Below the pieces are notes generated by a model, which had not been told where the DNA came from, ran no database searches, and was given only the letters and a program-made list of their open reading frames with translations. A DNA stretch of 32,000 bases from Candidatus Baldrarchaeum yapensis (GTDB lineage: Archaea > Asgardarchaeota > Baldrarchaeia > Baldrarchaeales > Baldrarchaeaceae): contig JAEOSH010000003.1 in NCBI GenBank assembly GCA_016840465.1, positions 60,176 through 92,175 of the forward strand, in the 5' to 3' direction. Shown piece after piece: positions 9,494-30,144 of the stretch. The stretch's first letter is position 1. Each line of letters starts with the position of its first letter. The position numbers and the translations under genes were made by a program.

Positions 9494-9525
9494 CAAAAAA
9501 TAACAATTTTTTCCTTTTGTTTGTC
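9494..9525. terminator. Candidate bidirectional oligo-T terminator between convergent operons
   Basis: A6 (T6 on the minus strand) at 9495-9500, and T6 plus further T-runs at 9507-9520, between two convergent stop codons. Confidence 0.45.
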
Positions 9526-10098: not shown

Positions 10099-10107
10099 GG
10101 TATCACC

Positions 10108-10998: not shown

Positions 10999-11568
10999 TT
11001 AACCACTCTCCTGATAACCAACCATTTGATCGAATTTCATAATTTTTATCAACTTTCTGACTTCATCCAGCGCCTCGGGATAAGAATGAACCGTGGGTGG
11101 CAATTCACTTAAACCTAAAGCCTTTCTGATCTCTTTAAACTCGTCGGTGATCGGAACTGCGTGACCAAATCTTATAAGAAGCCTTGCAACTCGTTTGTGT
11201 TGCTCTTTCATCCTGCCGCTTTTTGCAGCAATGTTTCTGATCACTCTGATGATGTCCGTAGTTCTGACGCCGCGCGGACACCTCTCATAACACGTATAAC
11301 AGGTGGTGCAGTACCAGAGCTCTTCACTTGAAAGCACCTCATCCTTGAGCCCAAGAAGAGCCTTGCGCATAACTAGACGCGTCCTATAAGCAGTTCTTCT
11401 GCCAGATGGGCAACTTCCACTGCACGTTCCGCACTGGAAACATGCAGTGATGGTTTCCATATGTTCTCTTCCGAAAATCTTGGACCCGTACTCTATTATC
11501 TCCTCAACAAACTTAGGATCGGTTTTTTCGAGTTGTATGACCTGTTCGGAAGCACTCATCGCGGACAC
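10999..11568 (-). CDS. hdrC: Heterodisulfide reductase subunit C (copy 1)
   Basis: CFQCGTCSGSCP and LWYCTTCYTCYERCPRGV; its stop abuts the hdrB ATG. Confidence 0.96.
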   Translation of the reverse strand: MSAMSASEQVIQLEKTDPKFVEEIIEYGSKIFGREHMETITACFQCGTCSGSCPSGRRTAYRTRLVMRKALLGLKDEVLSSEELWYCTTCYTCYERCPRGVRTTDIIRVIRNIAAKSGRMKEQHKRVARLLIRFGHAVPITDEFKEIRKALGLSELPPTVHSYPEALDEVRKLIKIMKFDQMVGYQESG

Positions 11569-11679
11569 CCATTACGGATCAGCCGGGAATTACATACCCG
11601 GTGTCCTTTATTTGTTCTTTCCCAAGAAAAGAGGTATCCTCCAGTTATTCTGGTTATTACGTAAAAAATGTATTGGGGG

Positions 11680-12774: not shown

Positions 12775-13217
12775 CTCAACTCTCCCTTCTTAAGCTTCTC
12801 CTCGTCCTCCTTGATCCACTTCTCTATGTTCTCGACACCATGAATTAGATTTTTCAAGTCCTCCTCTAAGTTCGTCGGTTCTATTACCGCGATCCACCCC
12901 TCACCGTACGGATCCTCATTTAATAACTCGACTCTTTTCTCCTTAACGAGTTTTTCATTCACCTCTATGATCTTCCCGCTGACTGGCGAATACAGAGTTC
13001 CGCGCCATTTCCCACTCTCAACAACCGCAAGAGGCTTTCCTTGCTCGACATGCCGCCCAACGGGGAGTACTCGTATTGCTATTGCTCGCCCTAAGGCCTG
13101 TTGCCCCCAGTCATCTATTCCCACACGAACCTTCCCATTTTCAATACGTGCCCACGTGTGCCTTGGATGATAGTAGAGATCCTCGGGGAATTCATATTTT
13201 CCGAGTATTTTTACCAA
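12771..13217 (-). CDS. gcvH: Glycine-cleavage-H-like / LbpA-like lipoyl carrier protein
   Basis: LYYHPRHTWAR, VRVGIDDWGQ, lipoyl-Lys motif VVESGKW, YSPVSG, LLNEDPYGEGWI. TTG start at 13217 after GGAGGT (ORF track gives 13232). Overlaps lplA by 4 bp. Confidence 0.9.
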   Translation of the reverse strand: MVKILGKYEFPEDLYYHPRHTWARIENGKVRVGIDDWGQQALGRAIAIRVLPVGRHVEQGKPLAVVESGKWRGTLYSPVSGKIIEVNEKLVKEKRVELLNEDPYGEGWIAVIEPTNLEEDLKNLIHGVENIEKWIKEDEEKLKKGELR

Positions 13218-13262
13218 TATGCCGACCTCCACAATTTCTGAAGAGAAGTCACCGCATTGAGA

Positions 13263-13406
13263 ATATAAATGATGTACAGAGACTTGTTAGGGTGTATCAT
13301 CCCAATATGCTTTTTCCAAAATAAAACGCAAAGTTGCTGGAAAAATCGAAATTTTGTCCCTGTGGGTTTATTGTTTAAACCCTTTTAATTGACGTATGAT
13401 TTATAT
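13263..13406. promoter_or_regulatory. Divergent promoter region: back-to-back TTTATAT boxes flanking two inverted repeats
   Basis: TTTATAT on the minus strand at 13263-13269 (about 46 nt from the gcvH start) and on the plus strand at 13400-13406 (about 48 nt from the nuoA start). Inverted repeats TTTTTCCA-N19-TGGAAAAA (13311-13345) and GGGTTTA-N5-TAAACCC (13364-13382). Confidence 0.5.
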
Positions 13407-13453
13407 TGGGTACCTTTCGAATAGTTAGCGACTCGCGGAACGAGGGAAGACGG

Positions 13454-13777
13454 ATGAGCGACGCGCTAACTGTCATAATAGCGTTTGTGGTCTGCCTTCT
13501 GACTTCAGCGTTCCTTTACGCGCTCGGACGGAAATTGGCACCACGGGGCAAAGAGAATGACGAGAAAGTAACACCATACGCATGCGGAGAAGACTACCCG
13601 GTCGAATACATACAGTATTACATCCACTGGTTCTACTACGCGGTCTTCTTCACAATACTTGAGGTTGCAGCGATACTCATAGCGTTCTCGCTGTTCGCAC
13701 CAAGCGTGGCGCTCGTGGTGGTAATAATATACACGATTATGGCCCTAATTGCCGCGTTTATGGCACCGCGTGAGTAG
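13454..13777 (+). CDS. nuoA: NuoA-like membrane subunit
   Basis: 'KVTPYACGED' loop, 'YYAVFFTILEVAAI', three TM helices. Start at ATG 13454 (ORF track gives 13406). Confidence 0.88.
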   Translation: MSDALTVIIAFVVCLLTSAFLYALGRKLAPRGKENDEKVTPYACGEDYPVEYIQYYIHWFYYAVFFTILEVAAILIAFSLFAPSVALVVVIIYTIMALIAAFMAPRE

Positions 13778-13787
13778 GTGATGTGAT

Positions 13788-14225
13788 ATGGGAATACTAG
13801 ATCGTATGGTCAAGTGGGCGCGTATAAGATCACCCTGGATACTCCACTTCAACACGGGAGGATGCAACGCGTGTGACATAGAGGTACTAGCAGTATTAAC
13901 TCCAAGATTTGATGTTGAGAGGTTCGGAATACTCCTAAAGGGAAGCCCCAGACATGCTGATGTGCTCGTAGTAACAGGTCCCGTGACGAGACAAGTTGCT
14001 AAGCGGCTAAAAAGAATTTATTATCAAATGCCTGAGCCTAAATTCGTAATGGCAGTAGGTGCATGCGCAGTCAGCGGTGGGGTCTTCAGGGGGGCTTATA
14101 ACGTACATATGGGACTCGACCAAGTACTTCCGGTCGATGTATACGTTCCCGGATGCCCACCAAAGCCGGAGGCCATCATTGATGGTGTTGTTAAGTTGTT
14201 AAAGAAGTTGGAGGAGGGTGGTTAG
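13788..14225 (+). CDS. Group 4 [NiFe]-hydrogenase small subunit (NuoB/MbhJ/EchC-like)
   Basis: TGGCNACDIE (CxxC, hydrogenase type rather than the tandem CC of NuoB), SPRHADVL, GACAVSGG, DVYVPGCPPKP. Confidence 0.93.
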   Translation: MGILDRMVKWARIRSPWILHFNTGGCNACDIEVLAVLTPRFDVERFGILLKGSPRHADVLVVTGPVTRQVAKRLKRIYYQMPEPKFVMAVGACAVSGGVFRGAYNVHMGLDQVLPVDVYVPGCPPKPEAIIDGVVKLLKKLEEGG

Positions 14226-14226
14226 T

Positions 14227-14724
14227 GTGAGCGAACTAAAAGCGGAACAGGAACTCGTCGAGGATGTAAAGAAACAGCTCGGTGACAAAATTGTGGACAC
14301 CAAGATCCAGAGGGCAAAGAGGGTGTATATAAGGGTAAAGGCTGGAGATCACCGTGACGTTATAAAGTACCTCAAGGAGAAATGGGACGCATATCACGTA
14401 TCGACAATCACTGGCGTTGACTTGGGCGAAAATATAGAACTTCTTTATCACCTGTTCGCCTATCGGGGAAATGTTACGGTCACCGTGCGAACCGAGGTTC
14501 CAAAGTCGGATCCCAAGATACAGACAATTGTTGACATAATTCCGGGCGCAACGCTCTATGAGAGAGAAGTTCATGACTTGCTGGGTGTGGTTTTTGAGGG
14601 ACATCCTGAGCTTGAACGTTTAATATTACCGGATGACTGGCCAGAGGGGGTATATCCCCTAAGAAAAGAATACAAACTCGAAGTTGAGGAAGTTGAAGAG
14701 GTTAAGGAGGAGGGTGAGGCATGA
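14227..14724 (+). CDS. nuoC: NuoC/MbhK-like subunit
   Basis: 'STITGVDLG', 'ATLYEREVHDLLGVVFEGHP', 'LPDDWPEGVYPLRK'. GTG start at 14227 or 14218. Confidence 0.92.
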   Translation: MSELKAEQELVEDVKKQLGDKIVDTKIQRAKRVYIRVKAGDHRDVIKYLKEKWDAYHVSTITGVDLGENIELLYHLFAYRGNVTVTVRTEVPKSDPKIQTIVDIIPGATLYEREVHDLLGVVFEGHPELERLILPDDWPEGVYPLRKEYKLEVEEVEEVKEEGEA

Positions 14725-15935
14725 GCGAGGAGAGGATGTTTAGAATTCCCGTTGGTCCTCAGCATCCCGCTCTTAAAGAACCGATAAACTTCACATTCAT
14801 AGTTGATGGAGAAAGGGTCGTGGATGTCAAGCCACGGATAGGATACAATCACCGCGGAATAGAGAAACTCATGGAATCGAAGACGTACATTCAAGGGCTT
14901 TATCTCATCGAGAGAATTTGCGGAATATGCTCGGCGGCGCATCAGGGATGTTACGCTCAGAACATAGAGGAGGCCGCAGGCATCGAGGCACCCCCACGTG
15001 GTGTATACCTCAGAACGCTAATCTGGGAGTTAGAAAGAATTCACAGCCATCTCCTGTGGGTAGGTGTCGCATACCACGAGATAGGGTTTGATACGCTATT
15101 CATGTATGTATGGCGTGACAGAGAGCGGGTTATGGACATATTGGAGATGATATCGGGTAACAGGGTCAACTACGCAATGAACACCATAGGTGGAGTTCGT
15201 AGGGATGTTACTCCCGAAATTGTAGACAATGCCCTAAAGGCCCTCGACTACTTGGAAGAGAGAACGAAGTACTACAAGAAGGTCACCGAAGAGGACGACA
15301 GCATCCTTGCAAGGACCGTCAACGTCGGAATACTGAAGACAGAAGATGCTAAGAGATTATGCGCCGTCGGCCCGACGGCAAGGGCATCAGGACTGAAGGT
15401 TGATGTGAGAAGAGACGACCCATACGGTGCTTACGACGAGTTGGACTTCGACGTCGTAGTTTATGACACCTGCGACCTTACCGCGAGAGTACTCGTACGT
15501 ATAGACGAGGTTCTCGAAAGTATAAAAATGTGCCGCCAGATTCTCCAGAACCTCCCATCTGGGCCCGTTAGAGTGAAATTCAAGAGAAAGGTTCCAGAAG
15601 GAGAGTCAATAAGCAAGGTGGAGGCCCCTCGTGGAGAGGACTTACACTATGTCAAGGCAAATGGCACTGAAAAACCGGAGAGGTACAAGGTGAGAGCACC
15701 TACACTTGCGAATATACCGTCGGTCTGCGAGATGCTAAAGGGAGGATACATTGCCGACATCCCAATAGTATTCGCTGGTATCGATCCCTGTATTGCGTGC
15801 ACCGACAGGATGTTGTTCATAGATGTGAATACTGAGCGAAAGTGGATGTGGACGGAAGAGGAGTTGAGGATGTACGCGCGTAAGTGGTATAAGAAACATC
15901 TTAAGGAAGTGGTGAGGGAAAGATGGAAGTGCTAG
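14721..15935 (+). CDS. Group 4 energy-converting [NiFe]-hydrogenase large subunit (NuoD homologue with Ni ligands)
   Basis: L1 motif ERICGICSAAH and L2 motif DPCIACTDR are both intact; also GYNHRGIEK, EAPRGE, RAPT; about 40 aa extension after the L2 Arg. Confidence 0.93.
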   Translation: MSEERMFRIPVGPQHPALKEPINFTFIVDGERVVDVKPRIGYNHRGIEKLMESKTYIQGLYLIERICGICSAAHQGCYAQNIEEAAGIEAPPRGVYLRTLIWELERIHSHLLWVGVAYHEIGFDTLFMYVWRDRERVMDILEMISGNRVNYAMNTIGGVRRDVTPEIVDNALKALDYLEERTKYYKKVTEEDDSILARTVNVGILKTEDAKRLCAVGPTARASGLKVDVRRDDPYGAYDELDFDVVVYDTCDLTARVLVRIDEVLESIKMCRQILQNLPSGPVRVKFKRKVPEGESISKVEAPRGEDLHYVKANGTEKPERYKVRAPTLANIPSVCEMLKGGYIADIPIVFAGIDPCIACTDRMLFIDVNTERKWMWTEEELRMYARKWYKKHLKEVVRERWKC

Positions 15936-16939
15936 AACTCATACTCCTTATATTGGCAACTGTGTTGTTCCCCGGTGTTGTGTTCTGCACGTATTACGCC
16001 CTATTTCTAGAGTGGGTTGATCGAAAGTTCTTTGCAAGGCTCCAGAACAGAGTGGGGCCTTGGATAACTGGGCCAAAAGGAATACTGCAGCCCATTGCGG
16101 ATATAATAAAGTTACTCGCAAAAGAGGACATAACTCCAAATGGGGTTGATAGAGCCGGTTTCGTCGGTGCACCTTTCTTCGCATTAACCTTAGCGCTGTT
16201 CTCATTGATGTTCGTGCCAATAGCATCAACAAGCGGAATACTCTCATTTAAAGGAGATCTGCTCATAGTGCTGTTCATATCCACGGTATTCGGCATCATA
16301 ATAATATTCGCCGGGTACGTCTCTGCAAGCAGATTCTCGATAGTCGGCACTGCAAGAGCGGGGCTCCAGTTCGTGGGGTACGAAATCCCGCTCTTTGTGT
16401 CAGCAATTATTCCCGCACTTATAGCCAGGTCTCTGACATTGAAGGAAATAGTGGAGTGGCAGATTGCACATTACCCACTGATACTATGCTTCCCTGCAAT
16501 GATAGCATTCGGAATCTTCATAGTATGTTCCCTTGCGAAACTCGAAAAACTGCCGTTTGACATACCCGAAGCAGAAACGGAGATAGTTGCAGGGTGGGCA
16601 ACAGAGTTCAGCGGAAAGAAGTTGGCCCTCTTTAGACTTTCAACGGACCTGAAAATGTTGCTTCTTGCCGGATTGGCGACTGCATTGTTCCTTGGTGGAC
16701 CTGCACCCTGGGGCTTCACACTTCCGGCAGATCTAAATCCGTACCTTGCGGCGCTCATATACTCGATATGGTTCGTGATAAAGACAATAATCGTTGTGCT
16801 TATAATGTCCACGTTGAAAGCGGCATTTGCAAGGTACAGGATAGATCAGGCACTTAGGGGCTTCTGGAGATATCTAACGCCCCTATCGCTTGCAATACTA
16901 ATACTTACGCCTATAGTCGCCTATCATTTCTACTGGTAG
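15923..16939 (+). CDS. nuoH: NuoH/MbhM-like membrane subunit
   Basis: 'DRKFFARLQNRVGP', 'LQPIADIIKLLAKE', 'PFDIPEAETEIVAGWATEFSG', 'RYRIDQ'. Confidence 0.95.
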   Translation: MEVLELILLILATVLFPGVVFCTYYALFLEWVDRKFFARLQNRVGPWITGPKGILQPIADIIKLLAKEDITPNGVDRAGFVGAPFFALTLALFSLMFVPIASTSGILSFKGDLLIVLFISTVFGIIIIFAGYVSASRFSIVGTARAGLQFVGYEIPLFVSAIIPALIARSLTLKEIVEWQIAHYPLILCFPAMIAFGIFIVCSLAKLEKLPFDIPEAETEIVAGWATEFSGKKLALFRLSTDLKMLLLAGLATALFLGGPAPWGFTLPADLNPYLAALIYSIWFVIKTIIVVLIMSTLKAAFARYRIDQALRGFWRYLTPLSLAILILTPIVAYHFYW

Positions 16940-16949
16940 GTGATGTAAG

Positions 16950-17306
16950 ATGAGATTACCCGCAAGGTTCTCACCCGAATTGCTGAGGCATGTGCCGCGC
17001 AAGCCGGCAACAGTAATGTATCCGTTTGTCCCCGTGGAAGCACCGGAGGGCTTCAGGGGAAAACATGAATTTGATATAGAGAAGTGCGTTGGATGCGGCC
17101 TGTGCGCAAGGGATTGCCCCTCAGGAGCAATAGAAATGGTTCCCGATGAGAGAACAAAGGGCAAAAAGCGTCCTGTGATCCACTTGGACAGATGCCTCTT
17201 CTGTGCCCAGTGCGAGGAGTCATGCCCAAGAGGGGCGATAAAGCTAACAAAAGTGTACGAAATGGCGGGCTACAAGAGGGAAGAAATGGTAGTCACCGCC
17301 CCCTGA
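16950..17306 (+). CDS. nuoI: NuoI/MbhN-like 2x[4Fe-4S] subunit
   Basis: 'PATVMYPF...FRGKH', CVGCGLCARDCP, CLFCAQCEESCP. Confidence 0.94.
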   Translation: MRLPARFSPELLRHVPRKPATVMYPFVPVEAPEGFRGKHEFDIEKCVGCGLCARDCPSGAIEMVPDERTKGKKRPVIHLDRCLFCAQCEESCPRGAIKLTKVYEMAGYKREEMVVTAP

Positions 17307-17448: not shown

Positions 17449-18471
17449 GTGCTCCACATGTGTAAAAAGGAGAGTTTGTACAGGCTTGCAAAGGAAATAA
17501 AGGAATTCGTTGGAGTTTCTAGAAAGAGGCCAATCATAAGAGTGACTTCCGCATTAACCGATACCCTAGAATTTTCCGATGCAAAGATTATAAGAAGCTT
17601 CGGGGAGGATGCAGCAATACTCGACATAGGTAATGGAAGACTCCTCTTATTTGCGGCAGACGGAATATGGTATAAGTTGGTATCAGCGGACCCATTCTTT
17701 GCTGGATATTGCGCGGTATTGGTTAACGTGAATGATATTGTGTGTAAAGGCGGGGATCCTTTAGCGCTGGTCGATATACTCGGCGTTCCGAAGGAGTGCG
17801 ATATCGATAAAGTTGTGAGGGGAATAATACGGGGATGCAAGAAGTTTGGTGTTTCCTGCGTAGGAGGGCATTTGCACCCGGATCATCCGATCCCCGAAAT
17901 CTCCGCCGCAATCATAGGAGTTGCGGAATATAATAAGGTGATATTCAGCGATCTTGCAAGACCCGGTGACCTAATAATCATAGGGATAGATCTGGACGGG
18001 AAGTTTCATGAAAAGTTCAAATTGGCGTGGGACACAACATCGCACAAGTCTCCTAAGCAGATCAGAGATATGTTCCAAGCAATGTATATAATAGCGGACG
18101 AGGGACTAGCAACCGCAAGCAAGGATATAAGCAATCCTGGAGTCCTCGGATCTCTCGGGATGTTGCTCGAAGCAAGCCAAGTTGGCGGATACGTGTATCC
18201 TGATAAGATACCTATTCCGGAAAACGTGTCAATATATACATGGGTCAAGACGTACCCCGGATTTGGGGTTGTGCTCACATCACCCGAGGATCTTGCAAAT
18301 AAATGTGTGAAAATACTGGAAGACCATGGAATATCAGCATCCATAGTCGGAAAGGTGATCTCTGATCCTCTTCTTCTCCTAAAAAGCGATAATGAAATGG
18401 CTGAGGTCTTTAACTTCTCAAGAGACAAAATTTCGGGGAGACCTAACAGAGGGCAATTAAAACAAATTTAA
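17449..18471 (+). CDS. AIR-synthase/PurM-superfamily protein, methanogenesis marker protein 2-like
   Basis: 'SFGEDAA', 'LFAADGIW', 'DPFFAGYCAVLVNVNDI', 'GGHLHPD', 'ASKDISNPG.LG.LGMLLEAS'. The start could be ATG 17458. Confidence 0.8.
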   Translation: MLHMCKKESLYRLAKEIKEFVGVSRKRPIIRVTSALTDTLEFSDAKIIRSFGEDAAILDIGNGRLLLFAADGIWYKLVSADPFFAGYCAVLVNVNDIVCKGGDPLALVDILGVPKECDIDKVVRGIIRGCKKFGVSCVGGHLHPDHPIPEISAAIIGVAEYNKVIFSDLARPGDLIIIGIDLDGKFHEKFKLAWDTTSHKSPKQIRDMFQAMYIIADEGLATASKDISNPGVLGSLGMLLEASQVGGYVYPDKIPIPENVSIYTWVKTYPGFGVVLTSPEDLANKCVKILEDHGISASIVGKVISDPLLLLKSDNEMAEVFNFSRDKISGRPNRGQLKQI

Positions 18472-20005: not shown

Positions 20006-20944
20006 TTAAATTTTCACCCAGATTTCTTTAATCTTTTCGAGCAGAGGTTGCGTACTTATTGCGTGTAGATGTAAGCATAACTGGGTACGAGGATTTAATC
20101 CCAAAACTAGTCCTATTAACTGGCTGAGGTGGAGAACGGGTATTTGAAAATCTATCTTCCCACTTTTGTACAGATCTCTTTGGCAAATATCAAGCCTGTA
20201 CATACACGCAGGGCACCACACGACTATCATATCTGCACCGACTCTATGGATACTTTCTAACTTCCTTATGCATATATTTTCCGATAACTCGTAATGGACT
20301 CGTGACTGTATGCCGGATCCCCCGCAACACAAGTTTTTCTCCGAGTAATCCACGACCTCGGCCCCTAAATCGCTTAATAACTCGTCTACAAATCTTGGGT
20401 TCTTGTGGTCATCGAATTTCCTGAACATCAACTCGCGACGATAATGACATCCATAATGCACTGCAACTCTCAGCCCTTCTAGCGAGAATCTCATCCGACG
20501 CAGAATTTCATCCTTAAATGCATAAAACATCTCAGGTACATGGAAGATGTCAACATCTAAGTCGTTTACATCATCGGGAGTCCGACCAATTATCTCAGCT
20601 ATCCTCCGAGCCAGATCCTCGTTATTACTTAGTTCTCGAAGAGCATGATTAAACGCAGTGTAGCATGCGTTACAAACAACAAGTACTGCCTTGCAAGCGA
20701 GACTCTTTGCTAGGAGCATATTTCGGGCGCAGAGGGAAACCATGACTTCGGGTGGCGACATATTCCAAAAGAATGTGGGAAAGCCGCAACATGTCTGGTC
20801 ATCTGACATCAGGAAGGGTATGTCGAGAAACTTGAGCACAAAGTACGTGGCCACCTCTATCCCAGGATGGGCCTGCACGCAAGGCCGGAAGAGGAAGAAG
20901 GGCACCGTCTCTCTAATAATGCTGAAGTCCCTATCATTAGACAT
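20006..20944 (-). CDS. hdrB: Heterodisulfide reductase subunit B-like, divergent (copy 2)
   Basis: RPCV, QTCCGFP, VVCNAC, AVHYGCH, LCCGGSG, WCPAC: CCG-domain cysteines are retained, but the flanking motifs differ from copy 1. Confidence 0.88.
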   Translation of the reverse strand: MSNDRDFSIIRETVPFFLFRPCVQAHPGIEVATYFVLKFLDIPFLMSDDQTCCGFPTFFWNMSPPEVMVSLCARNMLLAKSLACKAVLVVCNACYTAFNHALRELSNNEDLARRIAEIIGRTPDDVNDLDVDIFHVPEMFYAFKDEILRRMRFSLEGLRVAVHYGCHYRRELMFRKFDDHKNPRFVDELLSDLGAEVVDYSEKNLCCGGSGIQSRVHYELSENICIRKLESIHRVGADMIVVWCPACMYRLDICQRDLYKSGKIDFQIPVLHLSQLIGLVLGLNPRTQLCLHLHAISTQPLLEKIKEIWVKI

Positions 20945-21470
20945 TTCTACTCACCTTTTTCATGTATTCTAAGGCTTCTGACTTCTCAAATATGCGCTTA
21001 ACGTCTCTAAGCGCATCTTCTGAAACAGACCTTGGTGGTATACCGACCTCCCTCTGGAGATTTATCAGATTATCTGTTAGCGGAACAGAAAGCCCCGTTT
21101 CCATGATGTTTTCCGCGAATTTTATTATCTTGCTCATCTTTAATAGCGTGTTTATGTCCTGTAAGAGCACGCCAGCGTATCTGAGATTTATTATGAACAA
21201 CGCCGGGTTTATCGACCGCGGGCACTTCATCGCGCATTCAAAACACAGCAGGCAGTCCCAAATGTTCTCACGTTCAAATATATCACCTAATGAGCATAAA
21301 AGGAAACGCCCGACGATCCTTCGGATATTAAAGTTGGAAAAGCGTGCCGCTGGGCAATCGCCGACGCACATCCCACACTGGTAGCAGGTTTCTATATTGC
21401 CCGCTCTTTTTCTCAAGTCCTCCTTTATTGCCCGTTCCACGGATTCGGGGATCGTCTGCGATCCTCTCAA
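20937..21470 (-). CDS. hdrC: Heterodisulfide reductase subunit C-like (copy 2)
   Basis: CYQCGMCVGDCP and IWDCLLCFECAMKCPRSI; overlaps hdrB2 by 8 bp. Confidence 0.9.
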   Translation of the reverse strand: MRGSQTIPESVERAIKEDLRKRAGNIETCYQCGMCVGDCPAARFSNFNIRRIVGRFLLCSLGDIFERENIWDCLLCFECAMKCPRSINPALFIINLRYAGVLLQDINTLLKMSKIIKFAENIMETGLSVPLTDNLINLQREVGIPPRSVSEDALRDVKRIFEKSEALEYMKKVSRNV

Positions 21471-21650: not shown

Positions 21651-22046
21651 TTGTCAATTTTCAAATACTTAAAGCCAAAAATCACGTATAGGGTCATTAT
21701 AGCTAGAATGCGTCCGAAAGAGGAACGTTCCGAGTACGATAGACTCTCAAATGGATATATGGAAATTGCCGCAGTTGCATATTTTAATCCGAGTGATTAC
21801 GACTCCCTGATAGGTAAGGAGGGTGGTAATGTTAAGGTGAAGGGCAGGGGAGGGGAGGTAGTACTTAAACCGCTAAAGGACGAAAGAGTTCCCAAGAACA
21901 CAATAATCATACCGCCGGGACCTTGGGCTAATGCGTTGATCGATGAGAGTGGCCATGGCGGCATTCCTCATTTTAAGTCCTTAAATGTCGAAGTGATGGT
22001 TGTCAAAGAGCCCGTTACCAAGGTAGAAGAGATTTTAAAAAGGTGA
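21651..22046 (+). CDS. fwdD: Formylmethanofuran dehydrogenase subunit D-like (molybdopterin-dinucleotide binding domain)
   Basis: 'AYFNPSD', 'VKVKGRGGEVVL', 'IIPPGPWANAL', 'GIPHFKS'; TTG start after AGGAGGTG. Confidence 0.85.
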   Translation: MSIFKYLKPKITYRVIIARMRPKEERSEYDRLSNGYMEIAAVAYFNPSDYDSLIGKEGGNVKVKGRGGEVVLKPLKDERVPKNTIIIPPGPWANALIDESGHGGIPHFKSLNVEVMVVKEPVTKVEEILKR

Positions 22047-22050: not shown

Positions 22051-23601
22051 ATGTCATCTGGAGCGCCTGAAAAGCTTATTATAAAAGGCGGCGTGGTCGT
22101 GGATCCGATTAATGAAATTCGAGGAGATAAACTCGATATTTTCGTTTCTAATGGAAAGATTTGTGAAGAATTCGATGAAAAGAATGCAAAGATAATAGAT
22201 GCGGCTGGAAACATCGTTGTTGCCGGGGCCATCGACCCTCATGCTCATCTCATCACAACAGGATCATTTCTGAGATACTTGGTTCCTGTAGCCCGCAAAG
22301 CACCAACTTATGAAATAATAAGAGAGTATGTGAGGCTGGGATGGACGACGATATCGCTGGTCGGTCCCTCGATTCCCGAAGTACTGCATGTACACACGAT
22401 CTTACGTAATATTGGTTTCATGGATTACGCGATATTTCCCCGCATCGACAATGATCAGATGTTTCTTTCTCTTGTCAGAACGCTGGACATCGCCGGACTT
22501 GCGACCTATTTGAGCATCATCGCTAAGAACTTACAAACGCTCGGTTTTTACATGGTACCGCCTGGCATCCTAGAGGGACAGGTCGCAGGACAAGATATAA
22601 AATCCTTGAAAGAAAAAATCAGAGTGCTGGACATCTCTCCCCTCGAAGCAATTATGGCACTTTTCGATTCCATAAAGAGAATAGGGTCTTTTGTTCCGGT
22701 GCAAATAGAGGCGCCTGGACTGACAAATAGCCCCATCGAAGAATTAAAGGAGATAATTGACGTACTTGGTGATGCAAGTATATTTGTGCCTCATTTATCG
22801 TATCATCTTCTGGGAGAGGACATCAGCACTGAGGAATTGCTGAAGCTTTTCGAGGGTGGCAAAATCTTCGGGGACATCGGAGTGTGCGTAGATAGAAGTA
22901 TTTCGGTAGCGCCCATAAAAAGGGTAGATGGATACAAGAATATACGGTGGTTTGCATCTTATGCTTGTGAAATGGAATCGTTTTCCCTCTATGGTCTTTT
23001 GGACGAAGAGTTTGCAGAGAAGCAGTCTTATGAAATTCTCAAAAACGCCTTAATGCTAGCAATTAAGGGAGGTAGGAAGGATAATTTGTCAATTTCAGGA
23101 GATATTCCACTATGCTCAGAACCTAAAGACCTTGCGATATTTATGTGTTCAATTCTTAGTAAGGAGTGCAGAAAGGAGGTTATAGGTCGGCATGCCACAG
23201 ATGACCTGTCAGCATTACCGGATGTCAATCTTATAGACGTCATACAAATGACCAGGGCGTCTCCTGCTAAAGCTTTAGGAATCGTAGAGAAAAAGGGACA
23301 TTTAGGAATCGGCGCAGATGCAGATATCGTAATCTATGACTTTGACATAGAGAGGCAGGACCCGTCGAGAGACTGGAAGGCATTCATGAAAGCGCTCCTG
23401 AAGCCGAAATATGTCATAAAGAGTGGTCAAGTAGTAGTGGTGGACGGCGAAATTACGAGTTCCGCCAATTCTTCTCCCATAATTGGCCGGGCAAAAGATA
23501 TCGACCAAAAAGAGTTCGAAGAATTTATTAACAGAGTGAGGAGAACCACAGGCCTTTACTACTCTTGCGTCGTTGAGAATAGATACAGAAGTGTCATGTG
23601 A
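22051..23601 (+). CDS. fwdA: Formylmethanofuran dehydrogenase subunit A-like amidohydrolase-fold protein with a degenerate metal site
   Basis: FwdA-like ends ('IIKGGVVVDPIN...DIFVSNGKI', 'IIDAAGNIVVAGAIDPHAH', 'TRASPAKALG...KGHLGIGADADIVIYD', 'YVIKSGQVVVVDGEI'); the core is strongly diverged. Confidence 0.8.
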   Translation: MSSGAPEKLIIKGGVVVDPINEIRGDKLDIFVSNGKICEEFDEKNAKIIDAAGNIVVAGAIDPHAHLITTGSFLRYLVPVARKAPTYEIIREYVRLGWTTISLVGPSIPEVLHVHTILRNIGFMDYAIFPRIDNDQMFLSLVRTLDIAGLATYLSIIAKNLQTLGFYMVPPGILEGQVAGQDIKSLKEKIRVLDISPLEAIMALFDSIKRIGSFVPVQIEAPGLTNSPIEELKEIIDVLGDASIFVPHLSYHLLGEDISTEELLKLFEGGKIFGDIGVCVDRSISVAPIKRVDGYKNIRWFASYACEMESFSLYGLLDEEFAEKQSYEILKNALMLAIKGGRKDNLSISGDIPLCSEPKDLAIFMCSILSKECRKEVIGRHATDDLSALPDVNLIDVIQMTRASPAKALGIVEKKGHLGIGADADIVIYDFDIERQDPSRDWKAFMKALLKPKYVIKSGQVVVVDGEITSSANSSPIIGRAKDIDQKEFEEFINRVRRTTGLYYSCVVENRYRSVM

Positions 23602-24901
23602 GTTTTTTGAATTTCCCCCGCTCTATAAGTCTTCTTATTCCTATTTTCGATATCTCGTCCTCTAGACGCTTTAACCTCTGTTGTAACTCGTCTTTGACAT
23701 CTTCAGGTACACTTGGAACTTCTCGTAACTCTTCCGCTGGAATTCTCTCCTCAATTTCAATTTTCGCATACCGCTGATGCTTTGGTGTTTCACGATTGAT
23801 AGTTGCATCTATTATTGCTCTTTTCCTAGACCCTGCCCACAGAGATGGAACCTCCGGATCAATAATGTTCACCGATGTTATCTCGACTTTAATTATATTT
23901 TCCGGGCATGCTCTCTCACAAGACCCGCAGAATATGCATAGACTCTCATTAACGGCTATCTTGCCTTCCCTTTCTGGGTCCTTTGGAATATACCAGCAAT
24001 TTACGGGACATATGTTTATACAGGCCTTACAACCAAGCGGATCGCACTTCTCTATATGGAAAAGCTTTATCTTTCCCTCGAAGCGCTTTTTTACCTCAAT
24101 GGCGTTTCTGGGACAAGTATTGGTACACCATCCGCAGTAAATGCAGTTTTCCTCGTTTATAACCACGTCTCCCGTGATGCGTGGTATTTCTATTTCTCTT
24201 TCAACTGGTGTTATGCACTTCACCTCTATTGCCTCATCAGGACAAATCTCTGCACAGAGGCCACAAAAATCACATTTCTCCAAGTTCACACTTATTGAGG
24301 AGGCAAAAGTGAGATCTGAGGGATCCGGCTTTTTCCACTCAATTACTATTGCATCGCACAATTCTGCACAAATACCACAAAATGTGCACTTTTCTTCGTT
24401 TATTTTTATTTCACCTTCGATTTTTTCGGGCATCTTCTTATATCTTACCAGATCTTCCTTCTTTTTAAGTTGAATTCTGACCTCTATACACCTCGTTGGG
24501 CAAATAGTCTCGCAAATCCTACAAGGAATGCACTTCTCTTTATCAATTCTTATACTTCCTACAATCCTCGGATACTCTTTCAGTGTCTCGATTCTCTGAC
24601 CATTTATTTCGAAAATTATCGCATTGATAGGACAGATTTCGGCACAAAGACCGCAAAACTGACATTTATCTTGATCAAAGGTTATTTTCGCAAATTTTCC
24701 ATCCATTTTCCCTGTAGCTATCTGGGGTATCGGTCCAAGAGAAATAGCACCCGTTGGGCATACCTCTACACATAATCCACATCCGACACACGTGTCCGTA
24801 TTGTAAATTAGCCTTTTCTTATAATTACGCCCAATCCACGTAACTATCATTTCGTTCTCCGTGAAGTCCAATAATATTTGGGGAGAAAACTCATCCGGCA
24901 C
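23594..24901 (-). CDS. fwdF: FwdF-like polyferredoxin, 8x[4Fe-4S]
   Basis: Eight ferredoxin-type motifs: CVGCGLC, CQFCGLC, CIPCRIC, CTFCGIC, CDFCGLC, CIYCGWC, CDPLGCKAC, CIFCGSC. Overlaps the end of hdrA-mvhD by 11 bp. Confidence 0.85.
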   Translation of the reverse strand: MPDEFSPQILLDFTENEMIVTWIGRNYKKRLIYNTDTCVGCGLCVEVCPTGAISLGPIPQIATGKMDGKFAKITFDQDKCQFCGLCAEICPINAIIFEINGQRIETLKEYPRIVGSIRIDKEKCIPCRICETICPTRCIEVRIQLKKKEDLVRYKKMPEKIEGEIKINEEKCTFCGICAELCDAIVIEWKKPDPSDLTFASSISVNLEKCDFCGLCAEICPDEAIEVKCITPVEREIEIPRITGDVVINEENCIYCGWCTNTCPRNAIEVKKRFEGKIKLFHIEKCDPLGCKACINICPVNCWYIPKDPEREGKIAVNESLCIFCGSCERACPENIIKVEITSVNIIDPEVPSLWAGSRKRAIIDATINRETPKHQRYAKIEIEERIPAEELREVPSVPEDVKDELQQRLKRLEDEISKIGIRRLIERGKFKKLT

Positions 24902-27272
24902 TTTTCATCACCAACTCGGAACCTATCGGACCCAACTTCTTGAGTTCTTCAACAAACTCCCTGACTATGTTTGCGAATCTCTCTCCTTCGGATGCCGAAG
25001 TGCTTGCGATTTTCAATCTGCGTGGATTAATCCCCACATTCTCAAGATACTTTTTGAGCGCAGAAATTCGTCTCTCGGCCTTTGAAAAACCTGTCCTGTA
25101 ATGGCAATCCTGAGGATGACAACCAACCACAAGGACTCCATCAGCTCCCGCCTTAAACGCCTCTAATATCATGAGGGGACTGACCCTTGCTGTGCACATG
25201 ACCCTTATCGGTCTAATGTTGGTTGGGTATTGTATTTTTGTGGTTCCTGCGAAATCAGCAGCCGCATAACCACACCAATTGCATAAGAATGCAACTATGA
25301 GGGGGAATTCGCATTTGTTTTCCAATGTTGCATGTATTTGGGCAATTATCTGTTGATTTGTGAAGTAAGGCATATCTAACGCGCCTGTGGGACAAGCGGC
25401 AACACAGGCGCCACATCCCAAGCAGGCACTTGAGTTTATGATAACCCCTTTCTCTTTATCGAATGTCAAAGCCCCCCAATCGCAGGCCTCCTCACAAAGC
25501 CTGCATCGCTTACATAGATCTGGATTATACGTCGGGACGTAGGGATCCAATTCTATTTTTTCGTGTAGCACAAAGTTCGCTGCATCGAGTGCGGCAGATT
25601 TGGAGTGTGCAACCGTGTCCTGAATGTCCTTAGGACCTTGAATTGTACCCGCAATGTAAATTCCCTGTATCATGGTCTCTGAAGGGGCAAGCTTCGGATG
25701 CCGCTCGAGGAGAAACCCATCAGAGGATTGAGAAATTCCTAGCATTCGTGCCAAGTCCTCGGTATCAGAGGGAGGAACCAGTCCCACGGACAATACCACG
25801 AGATCAGCATTTATTTCCATGATTTCCCCAGTAAGCGTGTTCTCTGCTCTAACTATGAGATCATCGCCGTTTTCATTTGCGGTGACCGAACTCGCCCTAC
25901 CTCTTATTATCTTTATTCCGAAATCTCTCATTGCTTTCAGCAAGAACTCCTCATACCCCTTTCCATACGTTCGTATATCCTGGAAGAGTATGAACACCTC
26001 GGCATCAGGTATCCTTTCCTTAATGCAAATAGCCTCCTTTATGCTGGCCGTACAACAGATCCTAGAACAATAGGGGTTGCCTACGCTTTCGTCCCTACTC
26101 CCAACACACTGGATGAACACGATCCTTCTGGGTTCCTTTCCGTTCGATAACCTGACCACACGTCCGCGCGTTGGGCCACTGGGGCTGAGCAACCTTTCGA
26201 GTTCTAGTGATGTTATAACATCGGGATACCTTCCGTAGCCGTACTCGCTCTTAAGTCGGGCATCAAAGGTTTCATAACCCGTGGCCACAATAATTGCACC
26301 AACATGAATCCTTATCCTTTCTGGCGTTTGATTGAAATCTATTGCATCGCGTTCACACGCATCTTCACAGTTTCTACAACCTATGCAATGATCTGGGTCT
26401 ATCACCGCGAGCAGAGGGACTGCTTGCGGAAACGGTAGATATATTGCCTTTCTTGGCCTCAGTCCCATGTCAAACTCGTTAGGGACCTCCACAGGACATG
26501 TTTTTGAACAAATTTCTATGCATCCGACGCATTTCTCCTCATTTACGTAACGTGGTCGTTTCAGTATCTCTACCTCGAAGTCCCCCGGTCTTCCCTTAAT
26601 GCTTGTTACCTCCGATAACGTTAGGACTTTTATCATAGGATGCTCCGAAACCTCGCTCATGAGAGGGGCCAGTATGCAAATTGAGCAGTCAAGAGTCGGG
26701 AAAAGCTTGTCGAGCATAGCCATATGCCCGCCCAGCGTCGGTTGCTTTTCGACGAGATAAACCTCAATTCCGAGACTTGCAAGGGAGAGTGCAGCCGTTA
26801 TTCCAGCGACTCCTCCGCCTATTACTAGAACTCTTTTCTTCGCACGTGCGTATCTGCGCTGTATTGGGGTTAGAAGCCTTGCCTTTTCGATTCCCATCTT
26901 TATCAGAGCAATAGCCTTGTTTGTCGCGGCGGTTGGAGAATACATGTGAGGCCAAGAGCATTGTTCACGAATATTCACAAATTCTACCAGAAACGGATTC
27001 AAACCCGCCTCTTCTGCTGCTCTTCTAAAAAGTCTCTCATGAAGCCGCGGGCTGCATGCCGCTATTACAACTTTTGATAATTTTTCCTCTGCTATTTTCC
27101 TTTTCAACTCATTAAGCCCTTCCTTGCTACATAGGTACGTGTGATCCATCACGAAAACGTTGGGGGCCCTCGCTATTTCGTTTAGAACCCGCTTGATGTC
27201 TATTACTCCGGCAATGTTCGATCCGCAATGGCATATGAAAACTCCTATTTTGTCGCTGTCCATATACTTCAT
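24891..27272 (-). CDS. hdrA: Heterodisulfide reductase subunit A fused to C-terminal MvhD [2Fe-2S]
   Basis: IGVFICHCG, AACSP, NIREQCSW, FAD motif VIGGGVAG, DKLFPTLDCSIC, inserted ferredoxins, ELERL, IQCVGSRD, YCSRICC...IKE, C-terminal ferredoxins; then the MvhD motifs FLCNWCGY, RVMCTARV and GCHPQDCHY. Confidence 0.96.
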   Translation of the reverse strand: MKYMDSDKIGVFICHCGSNIAGVIDIKRVLNEIARAPNVFVMDHTYLCSKEGLNELKRKIAEEKLSKVVIAACSPRLHERLFRRAAEEAGLNPFLVEFVNIREQCSWPHMYSPTAATNKAIALIKMGIEKARLLTPIQRRYARAKKRVLVIGGGVAGITAALSLASLGIEVYLVEKQPTLGGHMAMLDKLFPTLDCSICILAPLMSEVSEHPMIKVLTLSEVTSIKGRPGDFEVEILKRPRYVNEEKCVGCIEICSKTCPVEVPNEFDMGLRPRKAIYLPFPQAVPLLAVIDPDHCIGCRNCEDACERDAIDFNQTPERIRIHVGAIIVATGYETFDARLKSEYGYGRYPDVITSLELERLLSPSGPTRGRVVRLSNGKEPRRIVFIQCVGSRDESVGNPYCSRICCTASIKEAICIKERIPDAEVFILFQDIRTYGKGYEEFLLKAMRDFGIKIIRGRASSVTANENGDDLIVRAENTLTGEIMEINADLVVLSVGLVPPSDTEDLARMLGISQSSDGFLLERHPKLAPSETMIQGIYIAGTIQGPKDIQDTVAHSKSAALDAANFVLHEKIELDPYVPTYNPDLCKRCRLCEEACDWGALTFDKEKGVIINSSACLGCGACVAACPTGALDMPYFTNQQIIAQIHATLENKCEFPLIVAFLCNWCGYAAADFAGTTKIQYPTNIRPIRVMCTARVSPLMILEAFKAGADGVLVVGCHPQDCHYRTGFSKAERRISALKKYLENVGINPRRLKIASTSASEGERFANIVREFVEELKKLGPIGSELVMKSAG

Positions 27273-27379
27273 CTCTTGAAAATAGTGGATTGTGTGCCAC
27301 CTTGTTGAAAGTAAATAAATGGAACCATATACGTATTTCTGACACTGACCTCCGGTTCATATTCCAGAGGTGTAAGAGT

Positions 27380-27844
27380 TTGAAGCCGTCTCCTCTCGAG
27401 ATATATAAACTACTTCCGAAGACAAATTGCAAAAAATGTGGTTTGCCAAACTGTATGGCATTTGCCGTGAGATTACTGAGCGGTCAGGCAAAAATAGAGG
27501 ACTGCCCCGACCTCGTAGAGAGGGAGGAGTTCAGAGAGAATTATGAAAAACTTAAGGAGTTGCTGGGAGAAAGACCAGCAGCAGAAGTATCATTACCGAG
27601 AATAGATAATGAGGAGGCATGCAATGGATGTGGTATCTGTGTGGTGGTTTGCCCTGCGAATGCTAGGGCAGACCCGGAGGTTGGTAGCGGAAAGGGGGCA
27701 TCCCGAAAGGAAGGTCTCATTTTCGTGGTTGTTAATGGAAAAGTCAAGATAATGGATATAAGTAAGTGCAGGAGACAGGAAGATTTGACAACGTGTCGTG
27801 TGTGCGAGGAGTTCTGCCCAAATAATGTCATAAAAATAGGTTAA
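27380..27844 (+). CDS. fwdG: FwdG-like ferredoxin with an N-terminal small Fe-S domain (AcsC/RnfB N-terminal type)
   Basis: 'LLPKTNCKKCGLPNCMAFA...CP' followed by CNGCGICVVVCPANA...GKG and C..TTCRVCEEFCP. TTG start at 27380 after GAGGTG (ORF track gives 27290). Confidence 0.75.
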   Translation: MKPSPLEIYKLLPKTNCKKCGLPNCMAFAVRLLSGQAKIEDCPDLVEREEFRENYEKLKELLGERPAAEVSLPRIDNEEACNGCGICVVVCPANARADPEVGSGKGASRKEGLIFVVVNGKVKIMDISKCRRQEDLTTCRVCEEFCPNNVIKIG

Positions 27845-27866: not shown

Positions 27867-29159
27867 ATGAGATCATTTCACAATGTCATATGTACGGGCT
27901 GTTCTCTCCTCTGTGATGACATACAGGTCACTGTCGAGGGCTCGCACATAAAAGAGATTTTAAACGCATGTTCAAAAGGATGCTCAAGGTTCGTTTCGGA
28001 TCCAAAAGAGGGCAGATTATTGTCTCCCTTAATAAAGAGGAATGGTCGAGCCGAAAAGGCAAGCCTCGAGGACGCCGTAAAAGAGACCGTTGAAATACTA
28101 AAGACTTCCGATAGACCTCTGCTTTATGGCTGGAGCAACTGCGTATCGGAAGCTCAAATACTGGGGATAAAAATAGCACGAAAAATCAGAGGAGCAATAG
28201 ACGCAACATCCAGCTTTTGCCAAGGCGTCGTATACCTCGCAGCGTGCGAGGCAAAGGGGTATCACACAGTATCCTTGGGCGAGGTATTTAACAGAGCGGA
28301 TCTACTCGTGTTTTGGGGATGTAACCCTGCTGATGCTCATCTCAGGCACTTCAGTAGGTATACTTTCTTTCCACGTGGTAGATACAGACAAACGGGGTTT
28401 GAAGAGCGAGATAGTATCCTTATCGACGTTAGGGAAAGCGGATCAGCAAAAATTGCAAGGACACCATTGATCATAGAGCCAGAAACTGATTACGAGTTAA
28501 TACAGACAATAAGGGCGATTATTAAGGGACACGAAATTCTACATGGAAAAGTCTCCGGTGTAGACTTTGAAAAAGTAAAATCCATTGCGGATAAAATGGT
28601 CAACTCCAGATTTTGTGTAATATTCTATGGGCTGGGCCTATCCGGAACGAAAGGTACTTATAGAAACGTCTCCGCCCTTCTCTCCCTCGTTGACGACATA
28701 AACAGGAGAGGAACCCGTTGCGCAGTAATTCCTATGGCGGGGCATTTTAACATGGTTGGATTTAACAGGGTGCTCCTCGAGTTGACCGGATACCCGTATG
28801 GTGTGGACTTTCATGACGGTAGCGCTTACTGGAACCCAGGTGAAACCACCGCTTTTGATCTATTGAAAAAGGAAGAAGTCGATGCTCTCGTGGTCGTAGG
28901 TGCGGATCCTGTCTCCCACTTTCCGCGGAAAATTGCAAAGTACATATCAGAAATTCCAACTATCTACATAGGGCCTCACGTGACGCCCACCTCAGCCGTA
29001 AGCAGAGTCTCTATACCGGCGACAATAGCCGGTATAGAACAGGAGGGGGTTGCGTATAGACTCGATGGTCTTCCGCTAAAACTTAAAAAGATAGCAGATC
29101 CGCCGGATGGCGTAATTCCCGACGTAGCCATACTTGAGGCGATCCTTAAGCGCCTATAG
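27867..29159 (+). CDS. fwdB: Formylmethanofuran dehydrogenase subunit B-like W/Mo-bis-MGD protein with altered active-site residues
   Basis: CTGCSLLCDD/ACSKG [4Fe-4S], LYGWSN, SSFCQG, NRADLLVFWGCNP..AHLRHFSRY, PMAGHFN, VVGADP..HFP, YRLDGLP. Confidence 0.88.
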   Translation: MRSFHNVICTGCSLLCDDIQVTVEGSHIKEILNACSKGCSRFVSDPKEGRLLSPLIKRNGRAEKASLEDAVKETVEILKTSDRPLLYGWSNCVSEAQILGIKIARKIRGAIDATSSFCQGVVYLAACEAKGYHTVSLGEVFNRADLLVFWGCNPADAHLRHFSRYTFFPRGRYRQTGFEERDSILIDVRESGSAKIARTPLIIEPETDYELIQTIRAIIKGHEILHGKVSGVDFEKVKSIADKMVNSRFCVIFYGLGLSGTKGTYRNVSALLSLVDDINRRGTRCAVIPMAGHFNMVGFNRVLLELTGYPYGVDFHDGSAYWNPGETTAFDLLKKEEVDALVVVGADPVSHFPRKIAKYISEIPTIYIGPHVTPTSAVSRVSIPATIAGIEQEGVAYRLDGLPLKLKKIADPPDGVIPDVAILEAILKRL

Positions 29160-29181: not shown

Positions 29182-30144
29182 ATGAAGCTAAATCCCCCAA
29201 TAAGTATTAAAGATGCTAAGAAGATTCTGTCTGCACCGGATCAGGAGTTAAAGGCTCTCATGGAACATGCGAGGAAAGTCGCGGAGGATATCCATGGGCC
29301 GAACATTACTTTCTATGTACCAGGTAATAGCTTCCCAGCAATTTCGATAACTGGAACGAAGTGCTGGCTGCTATGTAAGCATTGTGTTGGGCATTACTTA
29401 AAGGGAATGATACCAGCAACAACTCCAGACGAGTTTCGAGAACTCTGTGTAAGACTCTGGAAAAGGGGGGCAAAGGGCTGTCTCATAAGTGGTGGTTACA
29501 CACGCTTCGGTGCACTTCCAATAGAATCTTTCTTTGAGGCAATAAAGTATGTGAAGAAAAACACAAAATTGCTACTAAATGTCCATCCCGGGTTTTTATC
29601 ACGTAATTCAATAATGCGTTTGGTGCAATGCGGCATCGATGCGGCATCGATAGATGTTGTGGGAAGTGAAGAAACAACAAAACAAGTATATGGCATCAGT
29701 AAGGATCCTCAAAGCTATGATAAATTATTATGCGAATTTAAAACGGCAGGAGTACCAATATTAGCCCCACACGTCTGTATAGGATTACATTTTGGTAAGC
29801 TACTCGGGGAACTTCATGCTCTTTCAATAATAAGGAATCATGAACCATCGGTTCTCGTATTCATAATCTTTACACCGACTCGTGGAACTCCCATGGAGGC
29901 GTGCAGTCCTCCGAACATTAAGGATGTTATCAGGCTCATTGTAGCCGCACGTCTGATGATGCCAGGTGTTCCGATATCCCTAGGATGTATGAGACCTAAG
30001 GGAACGTATAGAAGGGTTCTAGACGAAGTGTGCATGAGGGCAGGCGTTAACAGAATAGTTATACCGAGTGGGGTTGCATTAGATGTGGCTCGCGATCTGG
30101 GCTATGAGGTGTTAAGTAAAGATTTATGTTGTGTTTTCGCATGA
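29182..30144 (+). CDS. lipS1: Radical SAM protein, LipS1-type archaeal lipoyl synthase subunit
   Basis: CxxxCxxC (CWLLCKHC) preceded by FPAISITG; GCLISGG; LNVHPG; PHVCIGL; ISLGCMRP; C-terminal LCC. GC(M/A)R and CC are the auxiliary-cluster motifs I recall for T. kodakarensis LipS1. Confidence 0.78.
   Translation: MKLNPPISIKDAKKILSAPDQELKALMEHARKVAEDIHGPNITFYVPGNSFPAISITGTKCWLLCKHCVGHYLKGMIPATTPDEFRELCVRLWKRGAKGCLISGGYTRFGALPIESFFEAIKYVKKNTKLLLNVHPGFLSRNSIMRLVQCGIDAASIDVVGSEETTKQVYGISKDPQSYDKLLCEFKTAGVPILAPHVCIGLHFGKLLGELHALSIIRNHEPSVLVFIIFTPTRGTPMEACSPPNIKDVIRLIVAARLMMPGVPISLGCMRPKGTYRRVLDEVCMRAGVNRIVIPSGVALDVARDLGYEVLSKDLCCVFA

Follow-up and report, generated by a model that had tools for sequence, protein, structure and literature searches.

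The 32,000-nucleotide stretch analysed here (the window; positions 60,176 to 92,175 of contig JAEOSH010000003.1 from the Asgard archaeon Candidatus Baldrarchaeum yapensis) carries a gene, fwdA', whose product P0001 resembles FwdA, the formylmethanofuran dehydrogenase (Fwd) subunit that condenses formate with methanofuran. The gene lies among others for Fwd-like and heterodisulfide reductase (Hdr)-like subunits, several of them assigned with hidden Markov models (HMMs):

20006–20944 (−), hdrB', an hdrB-like gene (HMM)
20937–21470 (−), hdrC', an hdrC-like gene (HMM)
21651–22046 (+), fwdD', a divergent FwdD-like pterin-cap subunit (NF042908, 66.6 bits against a cut-off of 175)
22051–23601 (+), fwdA', a divergent amidohydrolase paralog of the FwdA/FhcA fold, 516 amino acids (HMM, AlphaFold, Foldseek and VIA)
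23594–24901 (−), a FwdF-like polyferredoxin (NF042909, 292.9 bits; seven Fer4 stretches)
24891–27272 (−), HdrA2 with a fused MvhD domain (NF040770, 1106 bits against a cut-off of 1100)
27290–27844 (+), FeS184, a small iron–sulfur (Fe–S) protein with an RnfB/CdhE-N-like domain and a ferredoxin, in the role of FwdG (domain search)
27867–29159 (+), fwdB', a FwdB paralog (HMM and alignments)
29182–30144 (+), a radical S-adenosylmethionine gene of the LipS1 type

The hdrB' and hdrC' genes are divergent from fwdD' and fwdA', and the polyferredoxin gene is convergent with fwdA', the two ends overlapping by 8 nt. The fwdA' frame runs uninterrupted over 516 codons; frame and translation confirm the intact open reading frame (ORF) of 516 amino acids on the forward strand at 22051–23601 that was described in a first-pass annotation made from the sequence alone. 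A Shine–Dalgarno-like AGGTGA motif stands upstream of fwdA', whose start follows the end of fwdD' by 4 nt, and fwdA' appears to be translationally coupled to fwdD', which has a Shine–Dalgarno-like motif of its own. Reading this interval as a pseudogene or as the wrong frame was ruled out by whole-length homology and a confident fold.

By its Pfam matches, P0001 is an amidohydrolase superfamily member (PF07969, 70.5 bits with a gathering threshold of 29.7; PF01979, 34.1 bits with a threshold of 25). The best NCBIfam models are those for FwdA, with the match split over three stretches, but P0001 misses the functional-equivalog cut-off: TIGR03121 gives 184.5 bits against 392.75, and NF042911 gives 183.1 bits against 950. 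The first-pass annotation had proposed a search for separate canonical Fwd genes, and these are present on another contig of the same genome (C56), as FwdA-FwdC-Mch and as FwdD-FwdB (FwdB, 648 bits) beside another HdrA2. The canonical FwdA scores 860 bits with TIGR03121. Because this canonical set exists, P0001 is a second, non-canonical copy; the genome yielded a single true FwdC and no second one. Canonical FwdA is longer by about 53 residues, P0001 having deletions after the HxH motif and around strands beta5 and beta7.

We modelled P0001 with AlphaFold2 from a 150-sequence alignment and obtained all eight barrel strands at a mean predicted local distance difference test score (pLDDT) of 88 and a predicted template-modelling (TM) score of 0.92. 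In Foldseek the top matches were the FwdA structures 8RJA_A and 5T5I_A (TM 0.83), followed by FhcA (0.81) and by other amidohydrolases at about 0.5. VIA-align gave Z scores of 39.7 and 39.4 against M. wolfeii FwdA (39.4 for 5T5I_A), with a root-mean-square deviation of 2.4 Å over 493–494 residues, and 38.6 against FhcA; all others scored 27 or less. The ESM Atlas model of P0001 agrees (TM 0.88). On the strength of these Foldseek, VIA and Atlas matches, P0001, as modelled, belongs over its full length to the FwdA/FhcA structural family and has the C-terminal extension specific to it. The first-pass description of a FwdA homologue is borne out by this ranking, in which FwdA and FhcA stand clearly above other amidohydrolases.

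The metal site is where P0001 departs from its relatives. The positions concerned are:

22240–22248 (+), ligands His64 and His66 of the beta1 HxH (DPHAH), kept (alignments)
22549–22551 (+), Tyr167 (codon TAC), where M. wolfeii FwdA has its bridging carboxy-lysine KCX178 (alignments)
22702–22710 (+), Gln218-Ile219-Glu220 in place of the beta5 His-Leu-His, with Glu220 at the probable ligand position (hhalign, DSSP and spacing)
22792–22794 (+), His248 of beta6 (VPHLSY), kept (alignments)
23101–23103 (+), Asp351 of beta8 (SGDIP), kept, with the conserved H-P-N that follows now I-P with a deletion (alignments)

The ligand set of P0001 thus reads H64, H66, Y167, Q218/E220, H248 and D351 against the canonical H-H-K-H-H-D, and four of six are kept. 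Tyr167 falls in the carboxy-lysine column in five alignments: phmmer against PDB chain 5T5I_A (residues 91–206 onto chain residues 102–217; counting along 5T5I_A puts its lysine at 178 and its HxH at His57/His59), BLASTP against the canonical FwdA of the genome, MAFFT over 211 family members, L-INS-i over the Asgard paralogs, and hhalign against a 141-sequence canonical profile. With Tyr167 in this column in all five, neither another bridging lysine nor a complete set of histidine ligands emerged. The earlier assignment of the tyrosine codon at 22549–22551 to the bridging lysine position is upheld, and the first HxH, the later histidine and the aspartate that it listed as surviving are His64/His66, His248 and Asp351 in the alignments.

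At beta5, P216-V217-Q218-I219-E220 lies opposite the canonical S-I-H-L-H in hhalign, reproducing the change from SIHLH to PVQIE noted at first pass; the MAFFT runs were shifted by one or two columns here. Because P0001 has no histidine between residues 116 and 247, the beta5 ligand has certainly been lost. In FhcA, 53 residues separate carboxy-Lys176 from the ligand His229 (PMC6926001), and the spacing from K183 to H236 in the canonical FwdA of the genome is also 53 residues. From this common spacing we infer that the ligand is the second histidine of H-L-H and that its position has been taken by Glu220. On the model, DSSP assigns strand beta5 to residues 217–219, which puts Glu220 at the C-terminal end of the strand, the usual location of a ligand. 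Among the 211 FwdA-like sequences, the ligand set is complete in 167, and tyrosine stands in the lysine column in only two. The carboxy-lysine and the beta5 histidine are perfectly conserved in the formylmethanofuran dehydrogenases studied so far (PMC11656701). Since both are lost from P0001, the canonical binuclear site bridged by carboxy-lysine cannot, to judge by the sequence, form in this protein. A 'remodelled' site would fit the data as well as a 'dismantled' one, as Glu220 appears to stand where the beta5 ligand belongs. Of the two alternatives put forward at first pass, a mononuclear or a non-catalytic copy, either may apply.

The substrate pocket has changed as well. The roles of the gate lysine (Lys64 in M. 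wolfeii) and of the methanofuran pocket residues are taken from PMC11656701. The canonical gate segment A-G-P-K-V, in which the gate lysine is K68 in canonical numbering, is missing from P0001: L-INS-i places a deletion after the HxH and no lysine. Canonical H388 and N390, which come after the catalytic aspartate, are respectively isoleucine and deleted, W366 is deleted and F276 is tyrosine, with no conserved new pattern among the residues replaced or deleted. The C-terminal KGHLGxGADAD motif is kept.

To place the gene in the phylum we used FeS184 as the marker of the locus; a phylum-wide TIGR03121 search listed mainly canonical copies. Of 301 Asgard genomes sampled, 142 have a FeS184 homologue, each in a single copy, and a FwdB-like gene follows it in 28 of the 29 loci checked in other genomes. 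Twenty regions of 11–17 kb share a recurrent order, hdrB'C' (−), fwdD' (+), polyferredoxin-hdrA2 (−) and FeS184-fwdB' (+), and the divergent arrangement of hdrB'C' and fwdD' is also found in genomes G060 (family f20) and G002 (family f2). The FwdA' gene is the variable member of this locus, in its presence and in its ligands:

f2 (G002, of the same taxonomic order as the window genome), f4, f7, f12, f20 and f23: FwdA' absent from the locus
f15 (G057, G041 and G032): present and placed as in the window, with fwdD' on one side and the polyferredoxin gene on the other; all six ligands kept
f18: ligand set complete
f9: present downstream of fwdB'-fwdD'; Asp replaced by Asn (6/6 genomes)
f8: present upstream of FeS184; in G020, the first His of the beta5 H-L-H (a probable non-ligand) replaced by Tyr, and Asp by Asn; in G010, the first His of HxH replaced by Asn, and Lys by Glu
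Window (P0001): Lys replaced by Tyr, and beta5 His by Glu

FwdA' is therefore optional at this locus and dispensable in other Asgard lineages; with P0001 as the query, only canonical FwdA was found in G001–G004 (f2). The FwdA' paralogs of f15, f9, f8 and f18, together with P0123 from Jordarchaeales and P0124 from Freyarchaeota, share the module with P0001, and the A-G-P-K gate segment is absent from all of them. They differ from P0001 in that none has tyrosine at the lysine position and none exceeds 32% identity to it. In f9 (G263, G266, G070, G048, G011 and G021; loci L081–L085 and L047) the HxH, the lysine and both histidines are kept and the aspartate has become asparagine within the motif S-I/L-N-Y/F-P, which in these sequences is a stable, family-wide change and not random decay. 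Between the window and f15, identity is 54% for HdrA2, 50% for FeS184, 42–43% for FwdB', 27–28% for FwdA' and 26–27% for FwdD'.

Three side observations concern these lineages. In G057 (f15), a FwdC-like gene (L092:15530–16327, −) that is 53% identical to the canonical FwdC of the window genome lies about 6 kb downstream of FeS184-FwdB'. Because it lies near these genes while the canonical FwdA of G057 sits on another contig, f15 may have a C subunit dedicated to the module. In three f9 genomes, canonical FwdA (734–761 bits) contains one in-frame TGA each (G120:C46:2877–4598, G203:C17:376698–378419 and G108:C47:63005–64756), which may encode selenocysteine or stem from an insertion or an assembly error. 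Many f9 FeS184 matches (L054, L056, L059, L060, L062 and others) contain TGA, once or twice, in the part that aligns with roughly the first 35 residues of FeS184 from the window, and these codons are probably upstream of the true start.

The partner subunit FwdB' is 47% identical to the canonical FwdB of the genome and keeps both the N-terminal Cys-x2-Cys-x3-Cys Fe–S motif and the cysteine that binds tungsten or molybdenum (W/Mo). Two residues that serve formate/CO2 chemistry in FwdB are, by alignment, replaced: S-V-C-H-G has become S-F-C-Q-G, which exchanges the formate-site histidine for glutamine, and P-M-R-G-H has become P-M-A-G-H, which exchanges the arginine for alanine. The first-pass annotation had likewise reported FwdB substitutions beside the altered FwdA, and had proposed that the two subunits changed function together; this second claim did not hold. 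The formate arginine is absent in all 19 Asgard FwdB' paralogs examined, every one of which has the Fe–S motif, and FwdB' of f7, f12 and f23 has also lost the W/Mo-binding cysteine (now Gly, Glu or Gln). Because the 19 include f15 and f18, with a six-ligand FwdA', and f2, f4, f7, f12, f20 and f23, with no FwdA' at the locus, the change in FwdB' is family-wide and old. It is phylum-wide and presumably ancient; the replacements of lysine by tyrosine and of histidine by glutamate in P0001 are later and specific to its lineage.

P0001 is itself extremely divergent. A word-based search of 5.8 billion proteins and an exhaustive HMMER search of 1.84 billion representatives returned no full-length relative above 32% identity, the sole closer match being a 161-amino-acid fragment of the same gene at a contig end, and scans of genome and metagenome contig collections found no relatives. 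The nearest relatives carry the source names Jordarchaeales, Freyarchaeota, Sigynarchaeota and Lokiarchaeia. In maximum-likelihood trees the terminal branch of P0001 measures 2.1–2.25 substitutions per site against a median of 0.4–0.46, about five times longer and the longest in the family. P0001 grouped with another long-branch group (Shimodaira–Hasegawa-like approximate likelihood ratio test (SH-aLRT), 84–88%), a placement that is unreliable, and a clade with the syntenic f15 genes was not rejected (log-likelihood difference 0.35; approximately unbiased test, p = 0.50). P0001 may be a fast-evolving orthologue of the f15 genes, a clade that the trees do not prove. We also note P0136, a very long-branch FwdA-like protein of 496 amino acids from Lokiarchaeia with the ligand signature H-H-E-F-E-Q-D; it has glutamate at the beta5 histidine position, as in P0001, and is not the sister of P0001 in the tree.

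Sequence loss in P0001 is uneven. We defined near-invariant columns as those conserved in at least 90% of 141 canonical FwdA sequences (n = 155), of which P0001 retains 70 (45%). By region, in canonical numbering, the positions kept are:

Residues 1–75: 16/25
Residues 201–300: 6/27
Residues 301–400: 11/37
Residues 401–480: 20/25

The termini keep 36/50 such positions against 28/95 in the barrel (Fisher p = 1.3e-6), in line with the well-conserved termini described at first pass. The chance that a neutrally drifting frame of 516 codons stays open at this base composition is about 4e-13. Given this improbability, the confident fold and the better retention of the termini than of the barrel, P0001 is not simply decaying. 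Near-identical copies of fwdA' were present in sediment and vent metagenomes from several studies, and no frameshift was seen in them. We compared contigs from four sequencing runs with the window; they are almost invariant, with too few changes for a test of selection. In the well-covered runs fwdA' has a single synonymous change, at 22638 (Ser196), and four more changes (V496M, V507I and two at codon 498, R498K and a silent one) lie on one low-depth contig near its end. In fwdD' there is one change, E99D.

The window lies on contig C84 of an assembly of 2.27 Mb that is 96% complete with 46% G+C. McrA was not found in this genome, which is a non-methanogenic Asgard metagenome-assembled genome. 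An Fpo/Nuo-like membrane complex (L, B, C, D, H and I subunits) occupies window positions 5916–17306, and a homologue of methanogenesis marker 2 (365 bits, at the cut-off) lies at 17449–18471. On contig C56, between the canonical fwdDB and fwdAC-mch genes, a 1,029-amino-acid ORF (L008:9573–12662, −; G000:C56) scores as two HdrA units in tandem (NF040770, 1164 bits over three stretches), and it adjoins a TfrB/HdrC-like protein.

The explanation that we place first, with about even confidence, is that P0001 is a fast-evolved FwdA paralog that no longer condenses formate with methanofuran and survives in an Hdr-linked, Fwd-like module as a structural subunit whose catalysis is lost or crippled. 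In such a module, HdrA2 with its MvhD domain and HdrB'C' would bifurcate electrons, the low-potential electrons would pass through the polyferredoxin and FeS184 to FwdB'D', and FwdA' would dock on FwdB'D' as FwdA does in Fwd. This proposal, including the direction of electron flow, draws on gene order and on the solved Hdr–Fmd complexes of methanogens. Erosion concentrated in the barrel, the absence of FwdA' from the locus in many lineages and the inconsistent changes among its paralogs suggest, at the level of sequence, a structural subunit. Since those changes to catalytic residues are mutually inconsistent, they point to relaxed constraint on catalysis and not to one new chemistry.

Comparison with known systems shows how such a subunit could be accommodated. 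P0001 shares with FwdA/FmdA (PDB 5T5I and 5T61 from M. wolfeii, 8RJA and 7BKB) the whole-length fold, the HxH, the beta6 histidine, the beta8 aspartate and KGHLGxGADAD, and its gene likewise lies beside FwdD-like, FwdB-like and FwdF-like polyferredoxin genes. It differs in being only 21–28% identical, in having tyrosine at KCX178 and Q-I-E for H-L-H, and in lacking gate Lys64 and a dedicated FwdC. Proteins of the amidohydrolase fold that have lost their metal ligands and serve a structural role in a larger assembly include CRMP/DPYSL and the inactive dihydroorotase-like PyrC' of Pseudomonas aspartate transcarbamoylase. CRMP structures are among the fold matches of P0001, but CRMP and PyrC' belong to separate superfamily lineages and their sites are fully lost, whereas P0001 keeps four ligands. 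A precedent within the same enzyme family is FhcB, a cofactor-less scaffold of the bacterial formyltransferase/hydrolase complex (PDB 6S6Y), whose FhcA has the same fold as P0001 but is catalytic, with all six ligands (His57, His59, His229, His258, Asp377 and carboxy-Lys176) (PMC6926001). In the window module, unlike Fhc, the altered subunit is A, and B keeps the Fe–S motif and the metal-binding cysteine.

Several points weigh against a structural role. The assembly of P0001 with FwdB'D' is deduced from gene order only, and the structural role is itself a deduction. With four of six ligands surviving and a glutamate at the beta5 position, P0001 could still hold a metal, or even two. Because all six ligands persist in the f15 orthologue, which occupies the same position, catalysis may well have been a property of the ancestral FwdA'. 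No orthologue of P0001 closer than about 30% identity was found.

The surviving ligands lend themselves to another reading, which we hold as a possibility of a lower order: that the metal site of P0001 has been remodelled and the protein is still an active metallohydrolase, acting not on formyl-methanofuran but on a different compound, perhaps one that the altered pterin site of FwdB'D' consumes or produces. His64, His66 and Asp351 would then hold the alpha metal, and Glu220 and His248, with or without Tyr167, would hold or replace the beta metal. The retention of the HxH, the beta6 histidine and the beta8 aspartate, the carboxylate at the beta5 ligand position and the confident modelling of all eight barrel strands are consistent with such a site, as are the intact ORF, seemingly coupled in translation to fwdD', and the Fe–S motif and pterin-metal cysteine of FwdB', which may still be a redox enzyme. 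Some amidohydrolases work with a single metal, or use something other than carboxy-lysine as the bridge; examples are the 'latent' dihydroorotase of Aquifex (1XRF, among the fold matches of P0001) and D-aminoacylase (1M7J), which has a bridging cysteine. We know of no amidohydrolase with tyrosine at the bridging position, however, and the canonical pocket has been mostly replaced or deleted without a conserved new pattern, the related FwdA' paralogs bear differing and inconsistent changes, and FwdA' is missing at the same locus in many lineages.

An extension of this idea, which we consider unlikely, is that a new Hdr-driven enzyme is built from FwdA' and FwdB'D', in which bifurcated low-potential electrons would reach a pterin site no longer used for formate or CO2, and a subunit with a metal site of three histidines, Glu, Asp and Tyr would process the new substrate or product. 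If true, the Fwd/Fhc family would have a third functional branch, one confined to Asgard archaea and with an unprecedented metal site.

That fwdA' is instead a functionless relic heading for loss, recently freed from selection once the Hdr-linked module needed no A subunit, seems improbable to us. The longest branch in the family would be explained, as would the lack of a close homologue in 1.84 billion representatives or the contig collections and the absence of FwdA' from the locus in the closest order-level relatives, where G001–G004 have only canonical FwdA. Against this, the 516-codon frame is intact at about 70% divergence, the fold is predicted with confidence, the ribosome-binding-site-like motifs are intact and near-identical metagenome copies from several studies show no frameshift; retention that is far higher in the termini than in the barrel (p = 1.3e-6) is not expected from uniform decay. 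The idea that P0001 is a divergent isoenzyme still forming or hydrolysing formyl-methanofuran, to which its FwdA fold, the nearby FwdD-like and FwdB-like genes and its best Pfam and NCBIfam matches might point, is very improbable, given the loss of the otherwise perfectly conserved carboxy-lysine and beta5 histidine, of the gate lysine and of H388, N390, W366 and F276, an HMM score below half the curated cut-off, a partner FwdB' without the formate histidine and arginine, and a genome that already has a canonical set.

A full-text literature search, of incomplete coverage, found no description of a ligand-deficient FwdA or of an Asgard Hdr/FeS184/FwdB' module; this silence is not proof of novelty. 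P0001 belongs structurally to the FwdA/FhcA family but fails the tests of a functional equivalog. With the fold kept and the bridging carboxy-lysine replaced, it offers a natural test of what the FwdA zinc site is needed for. It represents the most derived state of an uncharacterised Asgard-wide module that wires Fwd-like subunits to a bifurcating heterodisulfide reductase, and because the A subunit of this module is optional and variably degenerate, we argue that the module does something other than fix CO2 to formyl-methanofuran. This matters for the use of Hdr by non-methanogenic Asgard archaea, and for the automatic annotation of 'fwdA' and 'fwdB' in metabolic reconstructions. The single gene is a lineage-specific extreme, and its value is as a marker of, and a natural experiment within, a module that is widespread in Asgard archaea.

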